This document shows positions 3,381 through 62,029 of a stretch of 64,000 nucleotides of DNA, piece by piece (position 1 is the stretch's first letter; the number at the start of each line of letters is the position of its first letter). A model generated the notes under the pieces. The model was given only the letters and a program-made list of their open reading frames with translations, had not been told where the DNA came from and did not search any database. Source of the DNA: a virus; IMG/VR virus record IMGVR_UViG_3300035670_000154, positions 1 through 64,000 of that record. One strand, 5' to 3'. The position numbers and the translations under genes are program-made.

Positions 3381-3786
3381 ATAACTCTATGCTTGCGTCA
3401 ATTACTGAGGTGTCTGGCATTCCATTATCTCCATAACTAACTCGAACATTACCATCGTACCATTCAACAAAAGCAACCTCTTTACCAATATTGTGTTTCT
3501 CACAAACATTAACAGCAGATTTTATCACAAAATAATTGGTTGTTAAAAACACTAATGGAATACAAACATTGTTGTTTTTAGCATGATGCAAAGTTATTAA
3601 AATATCAGTTTCAACCTCATTGTAAACCTTTAATGGGTGTGTTGTATATCGATAATATCTATAATTAAGCCTAGGAATATCAGAGAATAAAGCATGCTCA
3701 AACGGGTCTTCTATTAGAAAAATAAAACTAGTTCCATCATCAGCTATTTCTTTAATTTCTTCTTTAATTTGTTGTTCTGGTGTCAT
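3349..3786 (-). CDS. protein resembling the degenerate C-terminal part of an ABC/AAA_21-type ATPase
   Basis: FIFLIEDPFEHAL (Walker B/D-loop-like), VFLTTNYFVIK (H-loop-like), GMPDTSVIDASIELYEKEI tail; no Walker A. Confidence 0.45.
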   Translation of the reverse strand: MTPEQQIKEEIKEIADDGTSFIFLIEDPFEHALFSDIPRLNYRYYRYTTHPLKVYNEVETDILITLHHAKNNNVCIPLVFLTTNYFVIKSAVNVCEKHNIGKEVAFVEWYDGNVRVSYGDNGMPDTSVIDASIELYEKEIERVLG

Positions 3787-4289
3787 TGTTTTTTCCAATT
3801 AAATAAAAAATTCCAAAATGATGGTTTATCTTTTCTTTTACCTTTTCTTTTAAACCTATTTATAAAGTCATCAACGACAGCAATCTCCATTTCTTTTTCT
3901 TTTTGTCTTTTTTCTATAAAATTTTTTGTGTTTATTTCTTTTTCTGTAATAACTGAATCTAAAATATTATCTATTACTTTTAAACAAATTCCCTTAACCT
4001 CTCCATCGAAACACCAATCTTCTGTACAATAAGATTCAGACTTATACCATGAATAAACAGTAGCGTCTCCTTTTATGCTTTTGATTTTAATATAAACACG
4101 TAAAAAGTTTTTGCCAAAAATACTTAAAAGAACAATGTCGTTAAGCACAAGCTCTTTAAACGTGTCGCCTTCATCTGTAATTCTGAAATCAAGAATATGT
4201 AATATGACTTCAGATATATTACGGCAATTTTTCCATCTTTCGTGTTTATTCAACTTATCAATAATACTCTGTTCAGTTATTTCTTGCAT
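3783..4289 (-). CDS. hypothetical protein (paralogue of 4291-4821)
   Basis: Starts MQEITEQSIIDK; shares EDW...GEVKGICLKVIDNILD with neighbour. Confidence 0.65.
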   Translation of the reverse strand: MQEITEQSIIDKLNKHERWKNCRNISEVILHILDFRITDEGDTFKELVLNDIVLLSIFGKNFLRVYIKIKSIKGDATVYSWYKSESYCTEDWCFDGEVKGICLKVIDNILDSVITEKEINTKNFIEKRQKEKEMEIAVVDDFINRFKRKGKRKDKPSFWNFLFNWKKQ

Positions 4290-4290
4290 A

Positions 4291-4821
4291 TTACTTCCTT
4301 TTGTCTATTTTAAATTGTTTAATAAAGCTTTCAATGGTGTTTTTTTCTATTTTTTTTTGCAGCGCCTCTTCATTCTCATTGTTTTTTTCAAATTGCTCAT
4401 ATTTTTGAATTTCTTCTTTTCTTGCAATTAAACACACATCTAAAAGTTTATCTAATATTTCTAAAACACACTGTTTTATTTCTCCAGTTTTCTCCCACGT
4501 TTCTTCCATAAAGCGTTTATTATGGAATATTAAAATATTTTCTTTTTCACCATGAATTTCAATTGTTACTATATATCCAACACCTGGTCCAGGTGAATGA
4601 TCATATACCTTTTTGATAATTAAACCATAAGCAAATATGACATCATCATTAAAAGTTTTTCGTATTTTAATATTTTCATTTTTTCCTTTCAAATCCAACC
4701 TAAACATAAACTTAATTACATCTGAAATACCATCCAATGTCGGCAAATTATTTTTTGGATATAAAGCAAATAATTCTTCTATACATTTATCAATAATACT
4801 CTGTTCAGTTATATTTTCCAT
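4291..4821 (-). CDS. hypothetical protein (paralogue of 3783-4289)
   Basis: Likely start MENITEQSIIDK after AAAGGA RBS; ETW...GEIKQCVLEILDKLLD. Confidence 0.65.
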   Translation of the reverse strand: MENITEQSIIDKCIEELFALYPKNNLPTLDGISDVIKFMFRLDLKGKNENIKIRKTFNDDVIFAYGLIIKKVYDHSPGPGVGYIVTIEIHGEKENILIFHNKRFMEETWEKTGEIKQCVLEILDKLLDVCLIARKEEIQKYEQFEKNNENEEALQKKIEKNTIESFIKQFKIDKRK

Positions 4822-4875
4822 ATTTATTCCTTTCAACAAAAACAAAATCATACCATAAAAAAATTAAAAAAACAC

Positions 4876-4904
4876 TTGACACGTGATAATTTTTGTGATT
4901 TAAT
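4876..4904 (+). promoter_or_regulatory. sigma70-like promoter
   Basis: TTGACA-N17-TTTAAT with TG extension and A-rich upstream tract. Confidence 0.65.
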
Positions 4905-4911
4905 ATGTTTT

Positions 4912-5207
4912 TTCGCTTATATGTCGGTGCGTCGTTCGGTAAGCGGTTTTTATAAAACAAGCATATAAACTCTTCGTTTATATGCGCCTGGTGAGAAGAG
5001 CAGGACATAGCCAGGGCGGTTGGGTGAATCAAAAAAGCCGTGTTGCATAGCTGTTAAATTGTTGTGAATGTGCTATTAGAGAAATCTATCGGAAGCAGCA
5101 ATTTATGGTTTAAGTTTTTTGAGTGTAAAAGCGAGAAATGGCTCCATGTAGTTATTACATAACCGAGTGCGTATTTTTACGCATATAGGTTGTGTTTTGC
5201 TCAAAAT
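4912..5207 (+). ncRNA. putative structured non-coding RNA of unknown class
   Basis: GC-richer intergenic region downstream of promoter; perfect 10-bp stem 4961-4985, CCTG/CAGG stem, GAAA tetraloop hairpin 5077-5088, terminal TCGCTT/AAGCGA pairing. Confidence 0.6.
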
Positions 5208-5383
5208 TCACCATGTAGTTATATTAAATAGGATACTTATGATTTCTGAATTAATAATTATTTTAAACGAATTGCTTGCTTATAAATTTGAACAACAGCT
5301 TATAAAACATTATAGAATTACTATTGCCACAGACCTATTAGAACCATGTAAACAAATGAAAAAAATTGAGCGAGGTGAAAAAA

Positions 5384-5566
5384 ATGATTGAATCAGAATA
5401 TATTAATGCAACAGACCTTTGTAAGATTCGTTTAGCAAAAACCATATTGCTAGACGTTATTCCAATTTTAGATGAAAATAATAAAGATTTGGGCGTTGCG
5501 CTGGTAAGTCTGTCGAAAATAGAAGATAGGTTGTCTTCTATTGTTGTTTGTGTTGAAGAGGTTTGA
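5384..5566 (+). CDS. hypothetical protein
   Basis: GAGGTG RBS then ATG; 60 aa; stop overlaps MTase start. Confidence 0.55.
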   Translation: MIESEYINATDLCKIRLAKTILLDVIPILDENNKDLGVALVSLSKIEDRLSSIVVCVEEV

Positions 5567-6738
5567 AAGGTTTTTTCATTGTGATTAACCAATGTCTATT
5601 TGATACATTTAAAAAACCAAAAAAAACACATGATTTTTGCATTCCTTACATGGGGTCAAAACGCTGCATTGCAGAACGTTTGTTAGATGAAATGCTTAAA
5701 ATCAAACCAAACGCGAAGTATTTTTATGATCTGTTTGGTGGTGGCGGTGCAATGTCTTTTATGGCTGCTCAGTATGGGTTAAGTGTTGTTTATAATGAGA
5801 AAAATAGTGCGGCATCTAGCTTTTTAGAGTTTATTTTTGATCGTATAAAAACAGGTAAAAAAAGCAAGTTTGGCATATTCCCTGAAGAATGGTATGAATT
5901 TGTCGGTCGTGAGCAATTTTTTAGCGCAATTGCCAAAAATGATGCTTTTTCACAGTTTTGTCGTGCATGTTATTCTTTTGGAAACAAAGGAACCTCATAC
6001 TCTTTTGGCAAGCACATAGAGGAATACAGCAAGCAAAAACACAATTTTGTGCTACATAAAGATCAAAATGCTAAAAAAATAATCAAAGAGCGTTTTGATG
6101 GTGATTATTCAAGGTTTTTACATCATGTGGAAACTGGTAAAGACTGGGTAGAGCGACGCGGTTTTTTTTCAAAAACATTCTTGAAGATCGAGGCGTTGCG
6201 GGTTGCGAATCTGTATCAAAAAGACTTTTCGGACTTTTTCAGCGACTTCACACCAAAACAGTTTTATGACTACAGACAAGTCGATTTGATTGGATTGATA
6301 AACGAAAAAATACCGCATATTGACAAAAAAAAATATAAAAGTGATCGAGATTCTTTAGAATCATTAAAAGAGTTGCAGCAGTTGGAGCAGTTGCAGCAGT
6401 TGCAGCAGTTGCAGCAGTTGCAGCAGTTGGAGCGGTTTGGTACTACCAATAGTTTTTTTTCTATACAAAACAAGGATTTTTTAGATGTTGAGATAGATAC
6501 CCCAATTGATCAAACAATTGTGTATCTTGACCCGCCTTATCGTGGAACTGCTCAATACGATTTTGGTGTTGATTATGACAATCTTGACTATTATTTTAGA
6601 AACAGCCCGTTCACTTGCTTCATGAGCGAATATAACTCACCTCATAAAGAGGTGTTTTGTTTGGAAAAAAGATCACTTTTAAATCAATCAAAAGGTGATA
6701 ACGTGATTGAGCGGCTATATTGGAATGGAGTTTTATGA
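5563..6738 (+). CDS. DNA adenine methyltransferase (D12/Dam-like)
   Basis: IPYMGSK, YDLFGGGGAMS (SAM-binding motif I), VYLDPPY (motif IV), FMSEY; start position uncertain. Confidence 0.88.
   Translation: MKGFFIVINQCLFDTFKKPKKTHDFCIPYMGSKRCIAERLLDEMLKIKPNAKYFYDLFGGGGAMSFMAAQYGLSVVYNEKNSAASSFLEFIFDRIKTGKKSKFGIFPEEWYEFVGREQFFSAIAKNDAFSQFCRACYSFGNKGTSYSFGKHIEEYSKQKHNFVLHKDQNAKKIIKERFDGDYSRFLHHVETGKDWVERRGFFSKTFLKIEALRVANLYQKDFSDFFSDFTPKQFYDYRQVDLIGLINEKIPHIDKKKYKSDRDSLESLKELQQLEQLQQLQQLQQLQQLERFGTTNSFFSIQNKDFLDVEIDTPIDQTIVYLDPPYRGTAQYDFGVDYDNLDYYFRNSPFTCFMSEYNSPHKEVFCLEKRSLLNQSKGDNVIERLYWNGVL
6371..6433 (+). repeat. 9-bp tandem repeat x7 (AGTTG[C/G]AGC) encoding LQQ/LEQ
   Basis: Directly visible; in-frame within MTase. 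Confidence 0.95.
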
Positions 6739-7424: not shown

Positions 7425-7895
7425 ATGAAACAAATTGAAATTAAAATTTTAAACAGAAATCTTATTTCTGAAGAATATGGTGTAAAATATGCAACTGATG
7501 GTTCTGCTGGTGTTGATTTAAGAAATTGTGGATTAGATGAAGCAGAAGGTATTGATCTAATCACAATTAAGCCTGGTCAGACAGTTTTGTTAAAATCTGG
7601 ACTTGCTATTAACATTAAAGACCCTGGATTGGCTGCATTTATTTTTCCACGTAGCGGAATTGGTCATAAAAATGGTATTGTTCTTGGAAACTTAACTGGG
7701 GTTATTGATTCTGATTACCAAGGTGAAATCAAAATTAGTTTGTGGAATCGCTCTGATAAACCATATACAATAATGCCATACGATAGAATTGCACAAATGG
7801 TGTTTATGCCAGTTTCTCAGGTTGGATTTAATGTTGTTGATGAATTTGAAAAATCAGACCGTGGCGAAGGCGGCTTTGGTAGCACTGGTAATTAA
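7425..7895 (+). CDS. dut: dUTP diphosphatase (trimeric dUTPase)
   Basis: [35 protein letters not shown]: all five dUTPase motifs. Confidence 0.97.
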
Positions 7896-8168: not shown

Positions 8169-8984
8169 ATGGTAGAGTTTTTAAAAGAAGGTGATAAATT
8201 TTTATGTACAAATGGGCATGGTTCTGTTTTTGGTGAAATTTTTATGCTAGAAGACGGTTTGTATTATTATTCTGATAATCACAATATAGGTGGATGTTAT
8301 ACATGGCATACACTAAAATGTATTCAAGAAAAACTATTAGAGTTAAATTCTTTTAAAAAACAAAAATATGGTTTTAATGACCATATGGAACCAAAACAGC
8401 ATGTAAAACCAATCAAAATTAAAGAGACACAAGATTTGGTGGTAAATTTTTTAGATGCAGAAAATGGTGATATAGTATGCAAAAATGATAATGGTAGTAT
8501 CATTGGCGTTATTTTAAAATCTCCACTTTCTGGATATTATGTTTATCTCATTTTAAATGAAAATATAAATATTGAAACACAAAAAATTATTGAAGATAAA
8601 ACAAATAAATTAAATGAAGAAAATAAGGATGAGATATCAAAAAACATTTCAAATGAATTAGAAAAAATGCAAAATGAAATAGAAAAAAATGAAGGAAGAA
8701 AAGATGACAAAGGGAAGGCTATGTTTTCTCTAATACCAGCACTTGCTGAGGCAGAGGTTGCAAAAGTATTAACTTTTGGAGCGGCTAAGTACGGTAGAGA
8801 CAACTGGCGTTTTTTAGAAGATTTAGAAATACGAACAATGGACGCAGCTTTAAGGCATATAAGTGAAACAAGACTAGGAAGAAAAACAGATAATGAAAGC
8901 GGATTACATCCAATAGCTCATGCTATTTGTGAGTTATTGTTTTTTTTAGAACATGAGCTTGACAAAAACAAAAAACAAGATTAA
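8169..8984 (+). CDS. dATP/dGTP diphosphohydrolase (DUF5664) domain protein with N-terminal extension
   Basis: C-terminal GRKDDKGKAMFSLIP...VAKVLTFGAAKYGRDNW...AALRH...DNESGLHPIAHA. Confidence 0.85.
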   Translation: MVEFLKEGDKFLCTNGHGSVFGEIFMLEDGLYYYSDNHNIGGCYTWHTLKCIQEKLLELNSFKKQKYGFNDHMEPKQHVKPIKIKETQDLVVNFLDAENGDIVCKNDNGSIIGVILKSPLSGYYVYLILNENINIETQKIIEDKTNKLNEENKDEISKNISNELEKMQNEIEKNEGRKDDKGKAMFSLIPALAEAEVAKVLTFGAAKYGRDNWRFLEDLEIRTMDAALRHISETRLGRKTDNESGLHPIAHAICELLFFLEHELDKNKKQD

Positions 8985-57017: not shown

Positions 57018-57064
57018 TTATTTTGTCGTATAATGCAAGCCTTGTTTGTTTTAGGAGAAAAAAC

Positions 57065-57814
57065 ATGAGATGTTATGACGAAAATGATGCTATCAAATAC
57101 TCTTCAATCAATGCCGCTGTTTTACTTTGGCACATAAGGTTCTGGGTAGCAAAAAATAAAGCGAATGAAAAACATTTTTATGATGGTAGATATTGGACAT
57201 ATAACAGCGTAAAAGCATTCTCTGAGCTTTTTCCTGAGTTTACAAAAAGCCAAATATCTATTGCTTTAAAAAAACTTGAGGATTGCGGTGCGATAGTAAC
57301 TGGAAACTATAACTCATCCCCTTATGATAGAACAAAGTGGTATGCTTTAGCCGATGAAAACGATTTAACGAAAAACGAAAATGGAAATAAAAGTGATGAA
57401 AAATCTACTAATAAAGTAACAGATATAAAACCAAATATAAAAACAGATATAGACATACACCAAGGTGATGTTGATGATGAAACATGGGGTAAATTTAAAA
57501 CTCAAATGAAATCAAGAAAAAAGAAAATTACACAAGATTGGGTTGATGATGTAAAAAGAGAAGCGGATATTGCAGAAAAAGATGGTACACTTAACGCCTT
57601 TTTAATTGAAAAGGGAATTGAAATTGGATCGAAAACTCCTTTTTATAAGGCTATTATTGTTTGTGTAAGAAAGCAATGGCTTAGTTTTCAAGCTGATTAT
57701 CTTAATAATCAGTCATACAAAAAGCCAGTTGAAACAGAATCAAATAGGCATCACAATAAGGATCGTTTTGGCGATCTAAGTAGGTTTTATTATCAACAAA
57801 GAGGTGGTGAATAA
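57065..57814 (+). CDS. replication initiator (wHTH)
   Basis: DGRYWTYNS...FSELFP...KKLE..GNYN...DRTKWY; TAGGAG RBS; followed by DnaC-like gene. Confidence 0.8.
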   Translation: MRCYDENDAIKYSSINAAVLLWHIRFWVAKNKANEKHFYDGRYWTYNSVKAFSELFPEFTKSQISIALKKLEDCGAIVTGNYNSSPYDRTKWYALADENDLTKNENGNKSDEKSTNKVTDIKPNIKTDIDIHQGDVDDETWGKFKTQMKSRKKKITQDWVDDVKREADIAEKDGTLNAFLIEKGIEIGSKTPFYKAIIVCVRKQWLSFQADYLNNQSYKKPVETESNRHHNKDRFGDLSRFYYQQRGGE

Positions 57815-58570
57815 ATGTTTAGGACTGAAAAAAAAGATGCAGTATGTGAAAAACATGGCACTTTTGTGCAAGACGTTTTATTTATTTTAAACAAGCCAAG
57901 ATATAGGATGTGCCCAAAATGTGTCGAAGAGGAAAAAATAGCTGAGGAGGAAAAAAGAATAAAAAAAGAAAAGCAAGAAAAACAAAGAGAAATCGAGAGA
58001 CTTTTATCTGTTTCTGGCATACCTGAGATTTTTAAAGACGCTAGTTTTAAAAAATATGAAACAAATGAAAAAAACATAGAAATAGTAGAGTTTGCAAAAA
58101 AATACGTTGTTGATTTTAAAAGCAACAATGGTGAGTCAATTGTTTTTCATGGTGAAACTGGTGTTGGTAAAAGTATGTTATCATGTGTTATTGCAAACAA
58201 TTTAATTGCAAGGTGCAATACTGTTCTTTTTATAACTCTATCTGATATTTTTAAGCAGATAAAAGAAACATGGAAAAAAAATAGCGAATTAAGCGAGTCT
58301 GACGTAATAAATTCATTTTTATCTGTTGATTTGTTGATTATTGATGAGGTTGGGTTAAAGCAGTTAAGAGAAAACGATGATGCTTTGCTTTTTGATGTGA
58401 TTGATGGTAGAATATTAAAAAGAAAGCCGTTTATAATAACAACAAATAAATCACCAGACTTGCTTTTTAAATTTGTTGGTGATAGAATAGCGTCAAGAAT
58501 AATAGGCGTATGTAAAGGGCGTATTATTGGTTTTGATGGTGTATCTGATTATAGGATTAATGGAGAATAA
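57815..58570 (+). CDS. DnaC/IstB-like helicase loader
   Basis: CEKHG...CPKC Zn motif, GETGVGKS, LLIIDEVG, TTN, DRIASR. Confidence 0.92.
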   Translation: MFRTEKKDAVCEKHGTFVQDVLFILNKPRYRMCPKCVEEEKIAEEEKRIKKEKQEKQREIERLLSVSGIPEIFKDASFKKYETNEKNIEIVEFAKKYVVDFKSNNGESIVFHGETGVGKSMLSCVIANNLIARCNTVLFITLSDIFKQIKETWKKNSELSESDVINSFLSVDLLIIDEVGLKQLRENDDALLFDVIDGRILKRKPFIITTNKSPDLLFKFVGDRIASRIIGVCKGRIIGFDGVSDYRINGE

Positions 58571-59084: not shown

Positions 59085-59156
59085 ATCTCCATCGTATAAT
59101 GGATAATACAGCACTCTTCTAAAGTGCGGATGAAGGTTCGACTCATTCTGGAGATG
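59085..59156 (+). tRNA. tRNA-Arg(TCT)
   Basis: ATCTCCA/TGGAGAT acceptor, GCACT-CTTCTAA-AGTGC anticodon arm, GGTTCGACT; one T-stem mismatch; no encoded CCA. Confidence 0.85.
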
Positions 59157-59187
59157 TTTTTTTTATAAAAAATAATTTTGGAGTTAT

Positions 59188-59940
59188 ATGTTAAAGTTAA
59201 ATGGGGTTGAGATATGCCCCACAATTTTTAGTGATAACACATCACAGATATGGAAAATTCATGAGAGTTTGTTTGAAACAGCTTCTGAAATAGAATGGAT
59301 TTTTGGTGGAGACCAAGAGGTTTTTCATCTGTTTCAGTTGGCTATTCTTTGTAGGTCAAAAGGTGTTAAAAGTTTAAATCTTTTGACTAAATATTTGCCT
59401 TATGCTAGGCAGGATAAGCCTATTTCAAATGAAAGTACATTTGCATTACATGTTTTTTCAAAAATAATCAATCAAATAAATTTTGATTCGATTTTTTGTT
59501 ATGATCCACATTCTGACATTGCAAAAAAGCTAATTAATAATTTATTTTGTATTGATGTGGGAAGTCATGTTTATAGATTTTTTACAGAAAACAATTATGA
59601 TGTTGTTTTGTACCCAGACTTAGGAGCAAAAACAAGATATTCTGAGCTTTATGGGCTTCCATATATTTACGCAGACAAAAAGCGAGATCAGCTTACTGGC
59701 AATATTGAAGGTCTTGATGTTATTGGTGATTGCGATGGTAAGACTGTTCTTATTGTTGATGATATATGTGATGGAGGAGGCACGTTTATAATTGCTGCAA
59801 AGGAGCTTTATGATAAAGGAGCTATTGATGTTGGTCTTTTTGTTTCTCATGGCATTTTTTCAAAAGGAAAAGAGGTTTTATATAACGCAGGAATAAACAA
59901 AGTTTTTAGTTTAAATAATTTAGGAGATAAAAATGCTTAA
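59188..59940 (+). CDS. PRPP synthetase-like protein (Adps-like, NARP1)
   Basis: YLPYARQD, DPHS, PDLGA, LIVDDICDGGGTF, SHGIFS. Confidence 0.88.
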   Translation: MLKLNGVEICPTIFSDNTSQIWKIHESLFETASEIEWIFGGDQEVFHLFQLAILCRSKGVKSLNLLTKYLPYARQDKPISNESTFALHVFSKIINQINFDSIFCYDPHSDIAKKLINNLFCIDVGSHVYRFFTENNYDVVLYPDLGAKTRYSELYGLPYIYADKKRDQLTGNIEGLDVIGDCDGKTVLIVDDICDGGGTFIIAAKELYDKGAIDVGLFVSHGIFSKGKEVLYNAGINKVFSLNNLGDKNA

Positions 59941-61369
59941 GCTTTTGCCGCTTATTTGTTGTGATGGATATAAACTTGAACATAGAAAGCAGTATCCAGA
60001 ATCAACAGAAATTATTTATTCAACATGGACTCCAAGATTTTCTAAAAAAGAAGGGTTTGATGATGTTGTTGTATTTGGGATTCAATACGCAATAAAAAAG
60101 GTTCATGATTATTTTGACGAGTATTTTTTTAAAAAAAATATAGATGATATTTTAAAAGAATACGCTTCAATAATGGAGTGTTATGGGGTTTATGAAATAG
60201 AAACTGATCATATCAGGAATCTTCATAAGATTGGTTTTTTACCAATAAAAATATCATCCGTTTATGAGGGTGCTGTTGTAAAGTTTAAAACACCAGTTGT
60301 TACAATAGAAAATACATTAGATGAGTTTTTTTGGATAACAAATTTTTTAGAAACTTTTTTAAGCTGTGAACTCTGGCCAGCATCAACAGCCGCAACAATA
60401 GCGCTTAAGTACAAAAAAATATTAAAGAAATACGCAAAAAAAACATCCTCATGCGAAGGTTTTGTCGATATTCAAGCCCATGATTTTTCAATGAGAGGGC
60501 TTGAAGGAATTGAGGCTACTATTGGAATTGGGCTTGGTCATTTATCTTCATTTAAAGGAACTGATACAATAACAGCAATTCAAGGCGCTATGTATTATTA
60601 CAATCAAAAAGGTTTTATTGCTGGAACTGTCCCTGCAACAGAACATTCTATTCAGTCTTCATACGGAGACGATTTAAAATATTTCAAAAAAATGTTGGAT
60701 ATATACAAAAAAGGAATAGTGTCTATCGTATCTGACGGGTATGATTATTTTAATGTTTTGACTAATGTGTTGCCAAAAATAAGGAAAGAGATTCTTTCAA
60801 GGGATGGTAAGGTGGTTATACGACCAGACAGTGGAGACCCAGTTAAAATAATATGCGGAGACAAAGACGGAAAAACAATAGAAGAGCAAAAAGGTTCTAT
60901 TGAAATTTTGTATGAAATTTTTGGAGGATTTATCAATGAAAAGGGATATAAAGAGCTTGATCCTCATATAGGTTTAATATATGGCGACTCAATTACTTTG
61001 AACAGGTGTGAAGAAATTTGCCAAAAACTTGCTGAAAAAGGTTTTGCATCAACAAATGTTGTTTTTGGTGTTGGTAGTTATAGCTATCAGTATAATACTA
61101 GGGACAGTTTCGGTTTCGCATTAAAATCAACTGCCAACTCTGTTAGCGGAAAAGAGTTTGCTTTATTTAAAGACCCAAAAACAGACGATGGCATGAAAAA
61201 ATCTCAAAAAGGTAGGGTTTTTGTTGATGCTGATTTTTCTTGGTCTGACGGCTATACAAGTAAAAATATGCCAGAAAATAATATGTTAAAGCCAATTTAT
61301 ATTGACGGTAAATTTTTGATTGAAACAAGCCTAGAGGATGTTAGAAAAAGACTAGATAAGATAGCTTAA
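59933..61369 (+). CDS. nicotinamide phosphoribosyltransferase-like protein (Namat-like, NARP1)
   Basis: DGYKLEH..QYP, HDFSMRG, GTDT, PATEHS, IRPDSG, IYGDSIT, RDSFGFA.K, KDPKTDDG.KKS.KG. Confidence 0.93.
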   Translation: MLKLLPLICCDGYKLEHRKQYPESTEIIYSTWTPRFSKKEGFDDVVVFGIQYAIKKVHDYFDEYFFKKNIDDILKEYASIMECYGVYEIETDHIRNLHKIGFLPIKISSVYEGAVVKFKTPVVTIENTLDEFFWITNFLETFLSCELWPASTAATIALKYKKILKKYAKKTSSCEGFVDIQAHDFSMRGLEGIEATIGIGLGHLSSFKGTDTITAIQGAMYYYNQKGFIAGTVPATEHSIQSSYGDDLKYFKKMLDIYKKGIVSIVSDGYDYFNVLTNVLPKIRKEILSRDGKVVIRPDSGDPVKIICGDKDGKTIEEQKGSIEILYEIFGGFINEKGYKELDPHIGLIYGDSITLNRCEEICQKLAEKGFASTNVVFGVGSYSYQYNTRDSFGFALKSTANSVSGKEFALFKDPKTDDGMKKSQKGRVFVDADFSWSDGYTSKNMPENNMLKPIYIDGKFLIETSLEDVRKRLDKIA

Positions 61370-61375
61370 AAAATA

Positions 61376-61449
61376 GCGCCGTTAGCTCAGTTGGTTAGAG
61401 CAGAGGACTCATAATCCTTTGGTCACAGGTTCGAGTCCTGTACGGCGCA
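61376..61449 (+). tRNA. tRNA with CAT anticodon, probably Ile2 (lysidine) rather than Met
   Basis: GCGCCGT/ACGGCGC acceptor with C4:G69 and C5:G68; GAGGA-CTCATAA-TCCTT; lacks initiator features. Confidence 0.85.
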
Positions 61450-61483
61450 TAATCTTTATTTTTAAATAAACGAAGGAAATAAA

Positions 61484-61768
61484 ATGAATGTCTTGATTAA
61501 AGCGAGTGATCTACCAAAATCTGATATTGAAATTGATAAATTAAAAAATGTGCTATCTTACTTGAATAAAAGTATTCTTGAAGAGAATAACAAAGGATTT
61601 AAATCTTTAAAAACTCACGGTAAAAATGGTGAATTTGGAGGTGATGAGCTTTATTGCCACATAACACCTTTTGTAAAATCTGTTATTGATGAGCTTAAAG
61701 AAGCTGGATATAAGGCTGAAATTAGTTCTAATAACGCTTCTGGCATCCATCTTTTAATTAAATGGTAA
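61484..61768 (+). CDS. hypothetical protein
   Basis: 94 aa; ELKEAGYK...IKW ending common in phage hypotheticals. Confidence 0.6.
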   Translation: MNVLIKASDLPKSDIEIDKLKNVLSYLNKSILEENNKGFKSLKTHGKNGEFGGDELYCHITPFVKSVIDELKEAGYKAEISSNNASGIHLLIKW

Positions 61769-61800
61769 TATGTTTTACGCCTGTATCATAAAAACAACAC

Positions 61801-61829
61801 TTGACACAATAAGGTTTTTTTGTTATTAT
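61801..61829 (+). promoter_or_regulatory. promoter of RNA cluster
   Basis: TTGACA-N17-TATTAT with TG extension. Confidence 0.65.
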
Positions 61830-61840
61830 TTATTTTAAAT

Positions 61841-61941
61841 AATCATTAGCGATACAAAAAATAGATTTTTGTAAAGTTGCCGATAAAAGCATATATATTG
61901 TATATATGCCAAAAGCCATGACTGATTGTTATGTAATGATT
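61841..61941 (+). ncRNA. putative structured RNA
   Basis: AATCATTA/TAATGATT closing stem; TACAAAAA/TTTTTGTA and GCATATATA/TATATATGC hairpins. Confidence 0.45.
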
Positions 61942-61951
61942 GCTCTTTTTT

Positions 61952-62029
61952 CTTAGCGTAGGCTAGTTTGGTTAAGTCACTCCGTTTGGGGCGGAGATAT
62001 CGTAGGTTCAAATCCTACCGCTAAGACCA
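61952..62029 (+). tRNA. tRNA-Pro(TGG)
   Basis: CTTAGCG/CGCTAAG acceptor, CTCCG-TTTGGGG-CGGAG, GGTTCAAATCC, encoded CCA. Confidence 0.93.

Follow-up and report, generated by a model that had tools for sequence, protein, structure and literature searches.

The locus considered here raises the question of what is encoded by a G+C-richer stretch without a credible gene that lies directly after a promoter in an A+T-rich phage genome, and, if it encodes an RNA, whether that RNA acts on the genes behind it or on its own. The locus belongs to the virus record IMGVR_UViG_3300035670_000154 (G000; 72,164 bp, estimated to be 61% complete), whose first 64 kb, a stretch of 64,000 nucleotides (nt), were analyzed and are called the window. 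A first-pass annotation of the window, made from the letters alone, had placed a promoter-driven non-coding RNA (ncRNA) at 4912-5207 and regarded it as a candidate new phage ncRNA class. These limits are close to those obtained here, and the region is very probably a genuine conserved structured RNA that is absent from Rfam. Its fold is conserved via compensatory changes between two otherwise unrelated phages. The argument starts from the following two features.

4876-4904, + strand: promoter-like site, with the -35 hexamer TTGACA at 4876-4881, a 17-nt spacer, TG at 4896-4897 and the -10 hexamer TTTAAT at 4899-4904.
4907-5213, + strand: conserved structured RNA of ~307 nt, running from GUUUUUUCGC to CACCA, as delimited by conservation and the nhmmer envelope.

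Two homologues were recovered, with search patterns of 14 plain bases plus R/Y positions. The nearer, L003, comes from a mosaic relative of the window phage (blocks 71-99% identical) and is a metagenome contig of 12 kb; its RNA differs from that of the window at 3 of the 307 nt (A4968G, G4993U and U5195C). The other, G001, is a 23.6-kb IMG/VR record (38% guanine plus cytosine, GC) of an otherwise unrelated phage with lambda-like gene order, in which 234 of the 307 aligned positions are identical (76.2%; E 4.8e-57). The RNA is the top nucleotide match between G000 and G001, at 210 bits with the next match at 60.8, and nhmmer finds a single copy per genome. Only three proteins are common to these two phages, at 36-47% identity, namely the replication initiator (47%), a Holliday-junction resolvase and a dUTPase. 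That the RNA is kept at 76% while the common proteins stay below 50% points to strong selection or to movement as a unit. Conservation between the two lineages ends exactly at CACCA (5213).

RNAalifold, applied to the three-sequence alignment A3, gives 102 pairs, with 15 two-sided changes in which pairing is kept. Candidate helices were drawn from all stacks of 4 or more pairs that can form in each of the three sequences, and a model of 12 helices and 75 pairs, in which P4 and P6 are written as pseudoknots, has 99.6% of its cells paired on the alignment and 11 two-sided changes. None of 500 shuffles scored as high, and sliding the 3′ partners by 1-3 columns left 0-1 two-sided pairs; covariation among homologues, which the first-pass annotation had named as a test, is thus found. 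By our own tally, G.U accounts for 30 of the 225 cells of the pair table; read on the opposite strand these would be A.C, and the fold is therefore assigned to the + strand. Variants in contigs of sequencing runs, which lay outside model building, fit as well: A5100G gives U-G in P7, A5146G is unpaired, and the insertions in the arms of P2 (in one run contig, one after 4965 and one after 4981) pair with each other. Some ten helices are predicted in the molecule, together with two long-range pairings of the pseudoknot type, P4 and P6, arranged as follows.

4914-4945, + strand: P1, hairpin CGCUUAU/GUAAGCG, with an 18-nt loop (AUGUCGGUGCGUCGUUCG) invariant in all three sequences.
4946-4958, + strand: P1b, small hairpin GUUUU/AAAAC of 5 pairs, with 3 extra loop bases in G001.
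4961-4985, + strand: P2, perfect 10-bp hairpin GCATATAAAC/GTTTATATGC, with the invariant loop UCUUC at 4971-4975.
4987-5015, + strand: P3′, hairpin CCUGGU/GCCAGG, whose 17-nt loop holds GAAGA (4995-4999) and the 5′ strand of P4.
4998-5004 / 5196-5202, + strand: P4, long-range helix GAGCAGG/UUUGCUC, a pseudoknot with P3′.
5016-5041, + strand: P5′, hairpin GCGGU/GCCGU, whose invariant loop GGGUGAAUCAA supplies the 5′ strand of P6.
5029-5036 / 5115-5122, + strand: P6, long-range helix UCAAAAAA/UUUUUUGA, a pseudoknot with P5′.
5054-5113, + strand: P7, long hairpin with UUAA/UUAA (5054-57/5110-13), AUUGUUG/CAGCAAU (5058-64/5096-5102) and the apical UAGA-GAAA-UCUA (5077-5088).
5157-5195, + strand: P9, ACAUAACC/GGUUGUGU, enclosing P10, GUGCGU/ACGCAU (5167-5184); these are helices 11 and 12.

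Compensatory changes are distributed over several of these helices. P2 (10 pairs, 100% paired) shows 3 two-sided and 2 one-sided changes, and A4968G of L003 gives G-U there; the perfect 10-bp stem with the loop TCTTC had been recognized in the first-pass annotation. P6 (8 pairs, 100% paired) shows 3 two-sided changes, its counterpart in G001 being UCAAGAUU/AAUCUUGA. P7 has 2 two-sided changes and 1 one-sided change in the 5 commonly aligned pairs, or 4 two-sided changes when G001 UGUUUUA/UAAAACA is taken by eye as the counterpart, and its apical stem is invariant. One two-sided change is seen in P1 (7 pairs, 100% paired; U-A to C-G, with 1 one-sided change), in P3′ (6 pairs; C-G to U-A, with G4993U of L003 in the loop) and in P9 (8 pairs), where it lies at the helix end and the terminal pair is A-U in the window, G-C in G001 and A.C in L003. 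P5′ (5 pairs) has 1 one-sided change (G-U to G-C) and P10 (6 pairs) has 2. The support for P4 (7 pairs, 100% paired, 2 one-sided changes) is weak because the varying purines have U as partners, and P1b offers evidence neither way, since none of its 5 pairs varies.

The earlier model of 51 pairs has 94.1% of its cells paired on the same alignment, and its two-sided changes, 5 in all, are confined to the 10-bp stem and the AAATTGTTG stem. The latter, AAATTGTTG/CAGCAATTT around TAGA-GAAA-TCTA, is retained as P7 with 2 two-sided changes as aligned, and three more of the eight helices proposed then are compatible with the alignment; the inverted repeat TGCGTA/TACGCA is present in the sequence. The remaining three lose pairs in G001: CCTG/CAGG (1 of 4 pairs) gives way to P3′, TTTTGAG/CTCAAAA (2 of 7) to P6, and the end-to-end pairing TCGCTT/AAGCGA loses 2 of 6. 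The proposed GNRA tetraloop is not conserved, because GAAA of the window is UAAA in G001. The TCTTC of the P2 loop and the GAAGA of the P3′ loop are invariant in all three sequences, which is compatible with the kissing loop predicted earlier and places it beyond the reach of covariation; in the present model, a UCUUC-GAAGA contact between these loops, overlapping P4 by two bases, is plausible.

Folded singly, the + strand of the window reaches a minimum free energy (MFE) of -91.9 kcal/mol, compared with -74.3 +/- 4.15 for shuffled sequences (z -4.25; 0 of 100 shuffles as good), and the - strand gives z -2.20. Because the MFE folds of the three copies differ in their long-range parts, the structure model rests on comparison. 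Several helices of these folds were rejected: those of the window at 4989-4995/5207-5213 and 4998-5012/5188-5202 have pairs broken by G4993U and U5195C of L003, GGUGGUUUUGAU/AUCAAGAUUGCC of G001 has 4 mismatches in the window (by reading), and the L003-type helices AAAGC/GCUUU and UUUUGAGU/GCUCAAAA are lost in G001. On the - strand, the P2 hairpin (4961-4985) followed by TTGTTTTATA is listed as a terminator-like site, into which no - strand gene runs, and two G.U pairs of P2 in G001 would become A.C on that strand.

The element has a GC content of 0.41/0.39 at 4900-5199 versus 0.23-0.30 in the flanks, and at least 3 stops interrupt each of the six frames across 4907-5213, so that its description as a GC-richer stretch without a credible open reading frame (ORF) stands. 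A protein-coding explanation was rejected on these stops and on alignment gaps that are not multiples of three; no reading frame is conserved, and the only 'protein' match between G000 and G001 at the RNA, 20 amino acids (aa) on the - strand, is invariant block 1. A short upstream ORF from AUG 4921 was likewise discarded, having no Shine-Dalgarno sequence and 15 codons in the window versus 44 in G001 (by reading).

The conservation might also reside in the DNA, as a regulatory or recombination linker (divergent promoters, operators) that folds by chance and yields no functional RNA. The block shared with L003 is larger than the RNA.

4786-5247, no strand assigned: cassette near-identical in the window and L003, with homology dropping sharply on both sides.

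This cassette takes in the promoter region and the RNA together with the gene heads on both sides, namely the ~12 first codons and the ribosome-binding site (RBS) of the upstream (-) gene and the RBS and start of the downstream one; such reach into codons on one side and a start on the other is typical of mosaic module boundaries, and L003 alone folds with a z of only -2.14, over a slightly different span. In L003 the gene body upstream of the cassette differs from that of the window, and the 81 nt after 5247 are ~80% identical. Contigs of four runs aligned to 4291-6738 indicate that further relatives exist, and those from three runs begin to align at 4786/4787; the best-supported differences, beside which there are 160 others, so that the variant lists are incomplete, are sparse in the RNA region (5100, 5146, 5195, 5223) and dense after it (seven in 5248-5279). 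Run X19 covers only 4291-4479 of the window, and run X18 is probably DNA, so that its 466-nt contig over 4786-5230 says nothing on expression. A linker of this kind is nevertheless very improbable, because it accounts neither for the 11 two-sided changes with pairing kept, versus 0-1 in the slid controls, nor for the many G.U pairs specific to the + strand, and because 307 nt are kept at 76% in G001 although the neighborhood there is entirely different.

Whether the RNA belongs to a catalogued family was assessed with Rfam 15 (4227 models; membership is a score at or above the gathering threshold). At gathering scores the whole window yields only three transfer RNAs (tRNAs), all outside the element. 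With E<=10, the best score of the window copy is 20.9 bits against a gathering score of 100, with all E>=0.29 and hence at chance level, that of the G001 copy is 18.2 bits, and no family is common to the two lists; a match to Rfam, the other outcome that the first-pass annotation had asked about, is therefore lacking for both copies beyond chance. ARAGORN reports 0 tRNA or transfer-messenger RNA genes in 4700-5400. By prediction, the 3′ CACCA takes part in a pairing or adjoins one, and no acceptor stem formed with the 5′ end precedes it (by reading). Resemblances to RNase P, signal recognition particle RNA, 6S RNA, phi29 pRNA and tRNA-like ends were dropped, as no Rfam or ARAGORN model matched. 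The 17-nt string of invariant block 1 has no match in open-access papers, and a keyword search of the literature on the motif returned only general motif-discovery papers, supplementary motif lists being outside both searches. The proposal of a candidate new phage ncRNA class is thus supported by covariation and by the lack of an Rfam family, 'class' meaning here two independent lineages and close variants, and 4907-5213 is regarded as a new RNA family whose general kind, a structured phage leader or ncRNA, is known.

A fold of this complexity, pseudoknotted and with invariant unpaired stretches, at the 5′ end of an mRNA that has no terminator in the window, could in principle belong to a new ribozyme that excises itself from an operon transcript or cuts itself off it. 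This idea, which is pure analogy, is the most improbable of those considered: no ribozyme family of Rfam 15 matches at E<=10, and the sequences give no pointer to a cleavage site.

The RNA would be transcribed from the sigma-70-type promoter at 4876-4904, where the arrangement TTGACA-N17-TTTAAT is present as first described. The TG two bases before TTTAAT makes an extended -10 element, the promoter is strong by consensus, and transcription is predicted to start at ~4907-4912. The site is missing from the consensus promoter scan because the scan demands A at position 2 of the -10 hexamer. It is identical in L003; in G001, TGT-TAAACT ends 7 nt before the homologous G, and a -35 element is absent. 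The genes on either side in the window are the following.

4291-4851, - strand: upstream ORF, with a likely start at ATG 4822 and AAAGGAA before the start (read by eye).
5230-5391, + strand: 50-aa ORF, the first downstream gene, on the same strand as the RNA, with AGGA at 5230-5233 and ATG at 5239.

The RNA may belong to the downstream genes, as their 5′ leader, instead of being a free-standing ncRNA. The preferred reading, taken as a whole, is that of a new, uncatalogued, promoter-driven RNA of ~307 nt acting in cis as the 5′ leader of the following operon, where it would set transcription (read-through) or translation into the downstream genes; it is put forward tentatively, as possible rather than probable. 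In one version the RNA would be an antiterminator that modifies the polymerase that made it, like HK022 put and plasmid conAn2; in the other it would be a sensor in the manner of a riboswitch or attenuator, its core conserved and its 3′ platform specific to the lineage. The RNA lies immediately upstream of same-strand genes in all three genomes (two independent contexts). In the window and L003 it runs directly into an RBS and a small ORF, with 25 nt from the RNA to the ATG, no terminator-like site between the RNA and the 50-aa ORF of the window according to the terminator scan, and the RBS and ATG, 17-26 nt past the RNA end, conserved at 100% along with the RNA in L003. In G001 it lies between NinB and the genes for tail completion, TerS and TerL, which on the lambda map is where the late regulatory leader lies; the distance to the next start codon, GTG, is ~60 nt, a further promoter would have no space there, and the scan finds no promoter-like site between the RNA and that gene. 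The core is kept while the 3′ platform differs between the lineages, and the RNA was for this reason likened to riboswitch classes with alternative expression platforms.

The 3′ end carries a further peculiarity, a pair of direct repeats.

5144-5155, + strand: direct repeat copy 1, CCAUGUAGUUAU, after GGCUCC; an exact 12-mer, the copies lying 67 nt apart.
5211-5222, + strand: direct repeat copy 2, CCAUGUAGUUAU, overlapping the RNA 3′ end CACCA and lying 17 nt before the start codon.

At the same two sites, after GGCUCC and after CACC at the RNA 3′ end, each lineage has a duplicated 12-14-nt unit of its own, the copies being 67-71 nt apart across lineages; the unit of G001 is CC[G/A]AAGGUAUA[A/U]UU, at L005 1746-1759 and 1817-1830. 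In G001 the core is followed by a hairpin, AAGGUAUAU-UUGAU-AUAUACUUU, and U4CU9, and repeat copy 2 is the 5′ arm of this hairpin. Such a duplication would suit either alternative pairing or a pair of binding sites; an RNAduplex scan for a pairing partner found none common to both phages. Another alternative pairing is that of CCUGGU with GCCAGG (P3′) or, as UGGUG, with the 3′ CACCA, and the two are possibly mutually exclusive.

Such repeats would also suit a replication-origin transcript, in which a G-rich RNA hybridizes in the A+T-rich DNA downstream and primes synthesis in the manner of ColE1 RNA II or the T4 R-loop, the repeats being initiator sites. The positive GC skew across the element (+0.27 to +0.36), the A+T-rich DNA downstream in both lineages, the lineage-specific duplicated 12-14-nt units at homologous places, and the replication initiator (47% identity) among the only 3 common proteins speak for it. 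However, the repeat is present in just two copies, separated by 67-71 nt, and in the window coding DNA follows the RNA. The initiator gene is also distant from the element, by 52 kb in the window and by 6 kb in G001, whereas initiators of the O-like/DnaD-like type generally work on origins that lie within or next to the gene that encodes them. Compensatory changes, moreover, reflect selection on RNA folding, which is not by itself required of an R-loop origin. Such a transcript is very improbable.

The more serious competitor is a free-standing gene for a trans-acting structured ncRNA, for example a scaffold for a ribonucleoprotein (RNP), or a decoy or sponge that takes up a factor of host or phage, and this is nearly as likely as a cis-acting leader, though itself doubtful. 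Such an RNA would be made early from its own promoter, end at the hairpin and U-run in G001, and be processed out or co-transcribed in the window and L003. With ~ten helices, pseudoknots and several invariant 5-18-nt loops, the molecule is closer in character to large orphan RNAs than to leaders. A promoter-like site of its own precedes it in both lineages, and in G001 the hairpin and U4CU9 come directly after it; the stop of inter-lineage conservation exactly at CACCA resembles a gene boundary; and it has moved between unrelated phages into different gene neighborhoods, L003 being without the methyltransferase that comes after the RNA in the window. Against this, neither the window nor L003 has a terminator-like site, the RNA is followed closely by an RBS and start codon (17-26 nt past its end) that are fully conserved along with it in L003, it shares the orientation of the next gene in all three genomes, though in two independent contexts, and no partner protein is evident among the proteins common to both phages, which are the replication initiator, the resolvase and the dUTPase.

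The cis-leader reading faces difficulties of its own, which concern both the fold and the function and are gathered here. The alignment represents two independent lineages, L003 being nearly identical to the window, and the helix model was chosen after the same three sequences had been viewed; many short alternative pairings exist among the stacks compatible in all three. Helices with at most one compensatory change (P1, P1b, P3′, P4, P5′, P9 and P10) are provisional, and U5195C, found in L003 and in contigs of three runs, gives the A.C mismatch that ends P9. The start and end of the RNA, and its transcription itself, are predicted from sequence features. With 307 nt the RNA is larger than known small-molecule aptamers, put and EAR. 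The hairpin of G001 is weak, at -6.3 kcal/mol and z -1.06, with 31 of 200 shuffles folding as well, and, together with its U-run, fails the criteria of the terminator scan, while the 3′ platform of the window has no significant structure (z +0.87) and the downstream terminator-like sites in the window operon are not enriched (8 versus 5.3 +/- 2.6 in shuffles). The promoter and the hairpin and U-run in G001 fit a free-standing RNA gene equally well. Finally, the window and G001 operons have no obvious common feature, the downstream genes being a small ORF, a methyltransferase and a dUTPase in the window, a small ORF and a dUTPase in L003, and tail-completion and terminase genes in G001.

Known systems offer partial parallels to a cis-acting leader. 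HK022 put is ~70 nt with two stem-loops. A lambda-type late leader, pR′-6S-tR′, consists of a promoter, a short leader and a terminator between the nin/Q region and the late genes, and Q acts on it; the position of the G001 RNA fits this arrangement, but no Q-like gene is seen in L005, and the window copy does not precede late genes. HK022 put RNA is reported to act alone on RNA polymerase, suppressing pausing and termination in place of a protein antiterminator (PMC9378689). The RNA described here is like put in being a phage RNA directly after a promoter (the promoter-like site ends 3-8 nt before the conserved RNA in the window and G001) and upstream of a terminator-like hairpin and U-run and an operon in G001, where it takes the place that the late antitermination module would have in a lambdoid phage. 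It is unlike put in its ~307 nt, about ten helices and pseudoknots, and there is no evidence of sequence similarity.

The conAn2 regions of Gram-positive conjugative plasmids, as characterized in PMC8191782, are 260-600 bp long and act as RNA antiterminators in cis on downstream terminators. As with conAn2, a large non-coding region heads a long operon in a mobile element, as a short GC-rich stretch with stem-loops in an A+T-rich context, and the present element, with 307 nt and a GC content of 0.39-0.41 versus 0.23-0.30 in the flanks, agrees with the size and composition criteria in that text (PMC8191782). By the same text, however, conAn2 depends on the upstream ConAn1 protein for its action at a distance, and its regions are poorly conserved, with 30-40% identity (PMC8191782). 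No such gene was identified beside the RNA described here, though no comparison with a ConAn1 sequence was made, and this RNA is 76% identical between unrelated phages. The genes upstream of the RNA are the divergent ORF, without a Pfam or PHROG match, in the window and NinB with a ~40-aa ORF in G001. The hosts differ as well; the likeness is one of placement and composition, and no sequence relationship is claimed.

Riboswitches and T-box leaders share the conserved complex core at an mRNA 5′ end with a lineage-specific 3′ part, here the hairpin and U-run of G001 or the RBS of the window, and the possible exclusion between P3′ and UGGUG/CACCA adds to the likeness. Unlike them, the RNA matches no riboswitch or T-box model of Rfam 15, its 3′ platforms are weakly structured, and the downstream genes differ between the lineages and suggest no common ligand. 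GOLLD, ROOL and OLE are larger than the 307-nt RNA. The ornate, covariation-supported RNAs of this kind, including raiA, some of them phage-borne, were discovered before their function (e.g. bioRxiv 10.1101/2024.12.08.627333), and the present RNA is like them in this respect; it differs in having no match to their Rfam models and in its fixed position after a promoter and before a gene.

The search for further members gave no additional homologue. Neither the window RNA nor the G001 RNA has a blastn match among GenBank phages, and single neighboring proteins used as queries in viral contigs led to no related loci; a terminase query led to one distant record (L002/G002), without an RNA match. 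The exact 18-mer has 0 matches in viral contigs, a first pattern scan of genome contigs gave 0, and the methyltransferase alignment A1 gave 201 pattern matches in metagenome contigs, 0 of them confirmed. The 6 matches of a second genome-contig scan were confined to the pattern itself and were rejected as chance, as were the pattern matches L006-L012, of which L006, from viral contigs, is a G+C-rich coding region. A DNA search of 3 genomes and 401 genomes sampled from one phylum gave 0 matches, which is not informative on absence. The viral-contig scan omitted G001 though its sequence fits the pattern, so that collection scans may miss true matches.

G000 is an A+T-rich myovirus-like phage (33% GC), with genes including ribonucleotide reductase, terminase, portal, sheath, baseplate and NAMPT. 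DNA near-identical to the window occurs in 20 runs from 16 studies among the matches listed, mostly freshwater, lake and subsurface metagenomes, and 2 of these 20 runs may be the window's own source. No host could be assigned to the phage; the best phage matches are 31-36% identical, or 36-56% identical over 40-68% of the query. The RNA lies in a 416-nt gap that separates two divergent gene sets. Neither the upstream ORF (4291-4851) nor the 50-aa ORF (ATG 5239) has a Pfam or PHROG match; the latter has a diverged 53-aa version in L003 and is followed on the + strand by a 60-aa ORF, a D12-class adenine methyltransferase (5563-6738), a 149-aa ORF, a dUTPase and a MazZ-like dATP/dGTP diphosphohydrolase. 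L003 lacks the 60-aa ORF and the methyltransferase (window 5392-6738) and passes from the small ORF directly to the equivalent of window 6733, with the dUTPase following; to judge from the two sequences, these genes are a presence/absence polymorphism. In G001 the order is replication initiator, Holliday-junction resolvase, dUTPase, NinB, small (~40-aa) ORF, RNA, tail-completion protein, small terminase and GpA-type large terminase.

Some observations on the neighboring genes are recorded in their own right. The upstream (-) genes at 3783-4289 and 4291-4822 and the different upstream gene of L003 have near-identical first dozen codons (MENITEQSIIDK...; window 4255-4301 and 4786-4822, L003 11526-11572), which, as far as the sequences go, is a conserved gene head on diverged bodies. 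Close relatives of the methyltransferase, P0001-P0004, are 82-89% identical and come from Logan and ENA contigs; its QQLEQL-type coiled repeat (6371-6437) varies in length among relatives in A1 and draws very deep unrelated metagenome contigs, with a depth of up to 14,807 in one bin. The stretch 8169-8984 encodes the N-terminal domain of dATP/dGTP diphosphohydrolase (PF18909, MazZ-like) and adjoins the dUTPase (7425-7895), and this neighborhood may hint at a genome with a modified base (2-aminoadenine). The stretches 57023-58570 and 59085-62026 hold an O-like/DnaD-like replication initiator and a loader of the DnaC/IstB type, followed by the three tRNA genes, which are interleaved with a phosphoribosyl pyrophosphate-synthetase-like gene and NAMPT, a nicotinamide adenine dinucleotide salvage set.

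Large, intricately folded RNAs are rare and have repeatedly proved to be ribozymes, riboswitches or RNP cores. In its boldest form, the cis-leader reading would make this RNA a large, pseudoknotted, RNA-only transcription regulator, in which the nascent 307-nt leader reprograms its own polymerase or senses a cellular signal and thereby governs read-through in phage operons, replaces a Q-type protein antiterminator ahead of the late genes of a lambda-like phage and is traded as a discrete module between unrelated freshwater phages; this form is unlikely. If the RNA were a trans-acting one, it would be a new phage RNA with a target elsewhere. In either case it is a compact object for probing, cryo-EM and transcription assays, with P2, P6 and P7 as handles for compensatory mutagenesis. 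Should it prove to be an RNA-only controller of read-through, it would bring the antitermination systems based on RNA to four, the others being put, EAR and conAn2 by the count in PMC8191782, and it would be the first to stand before phage late genes.

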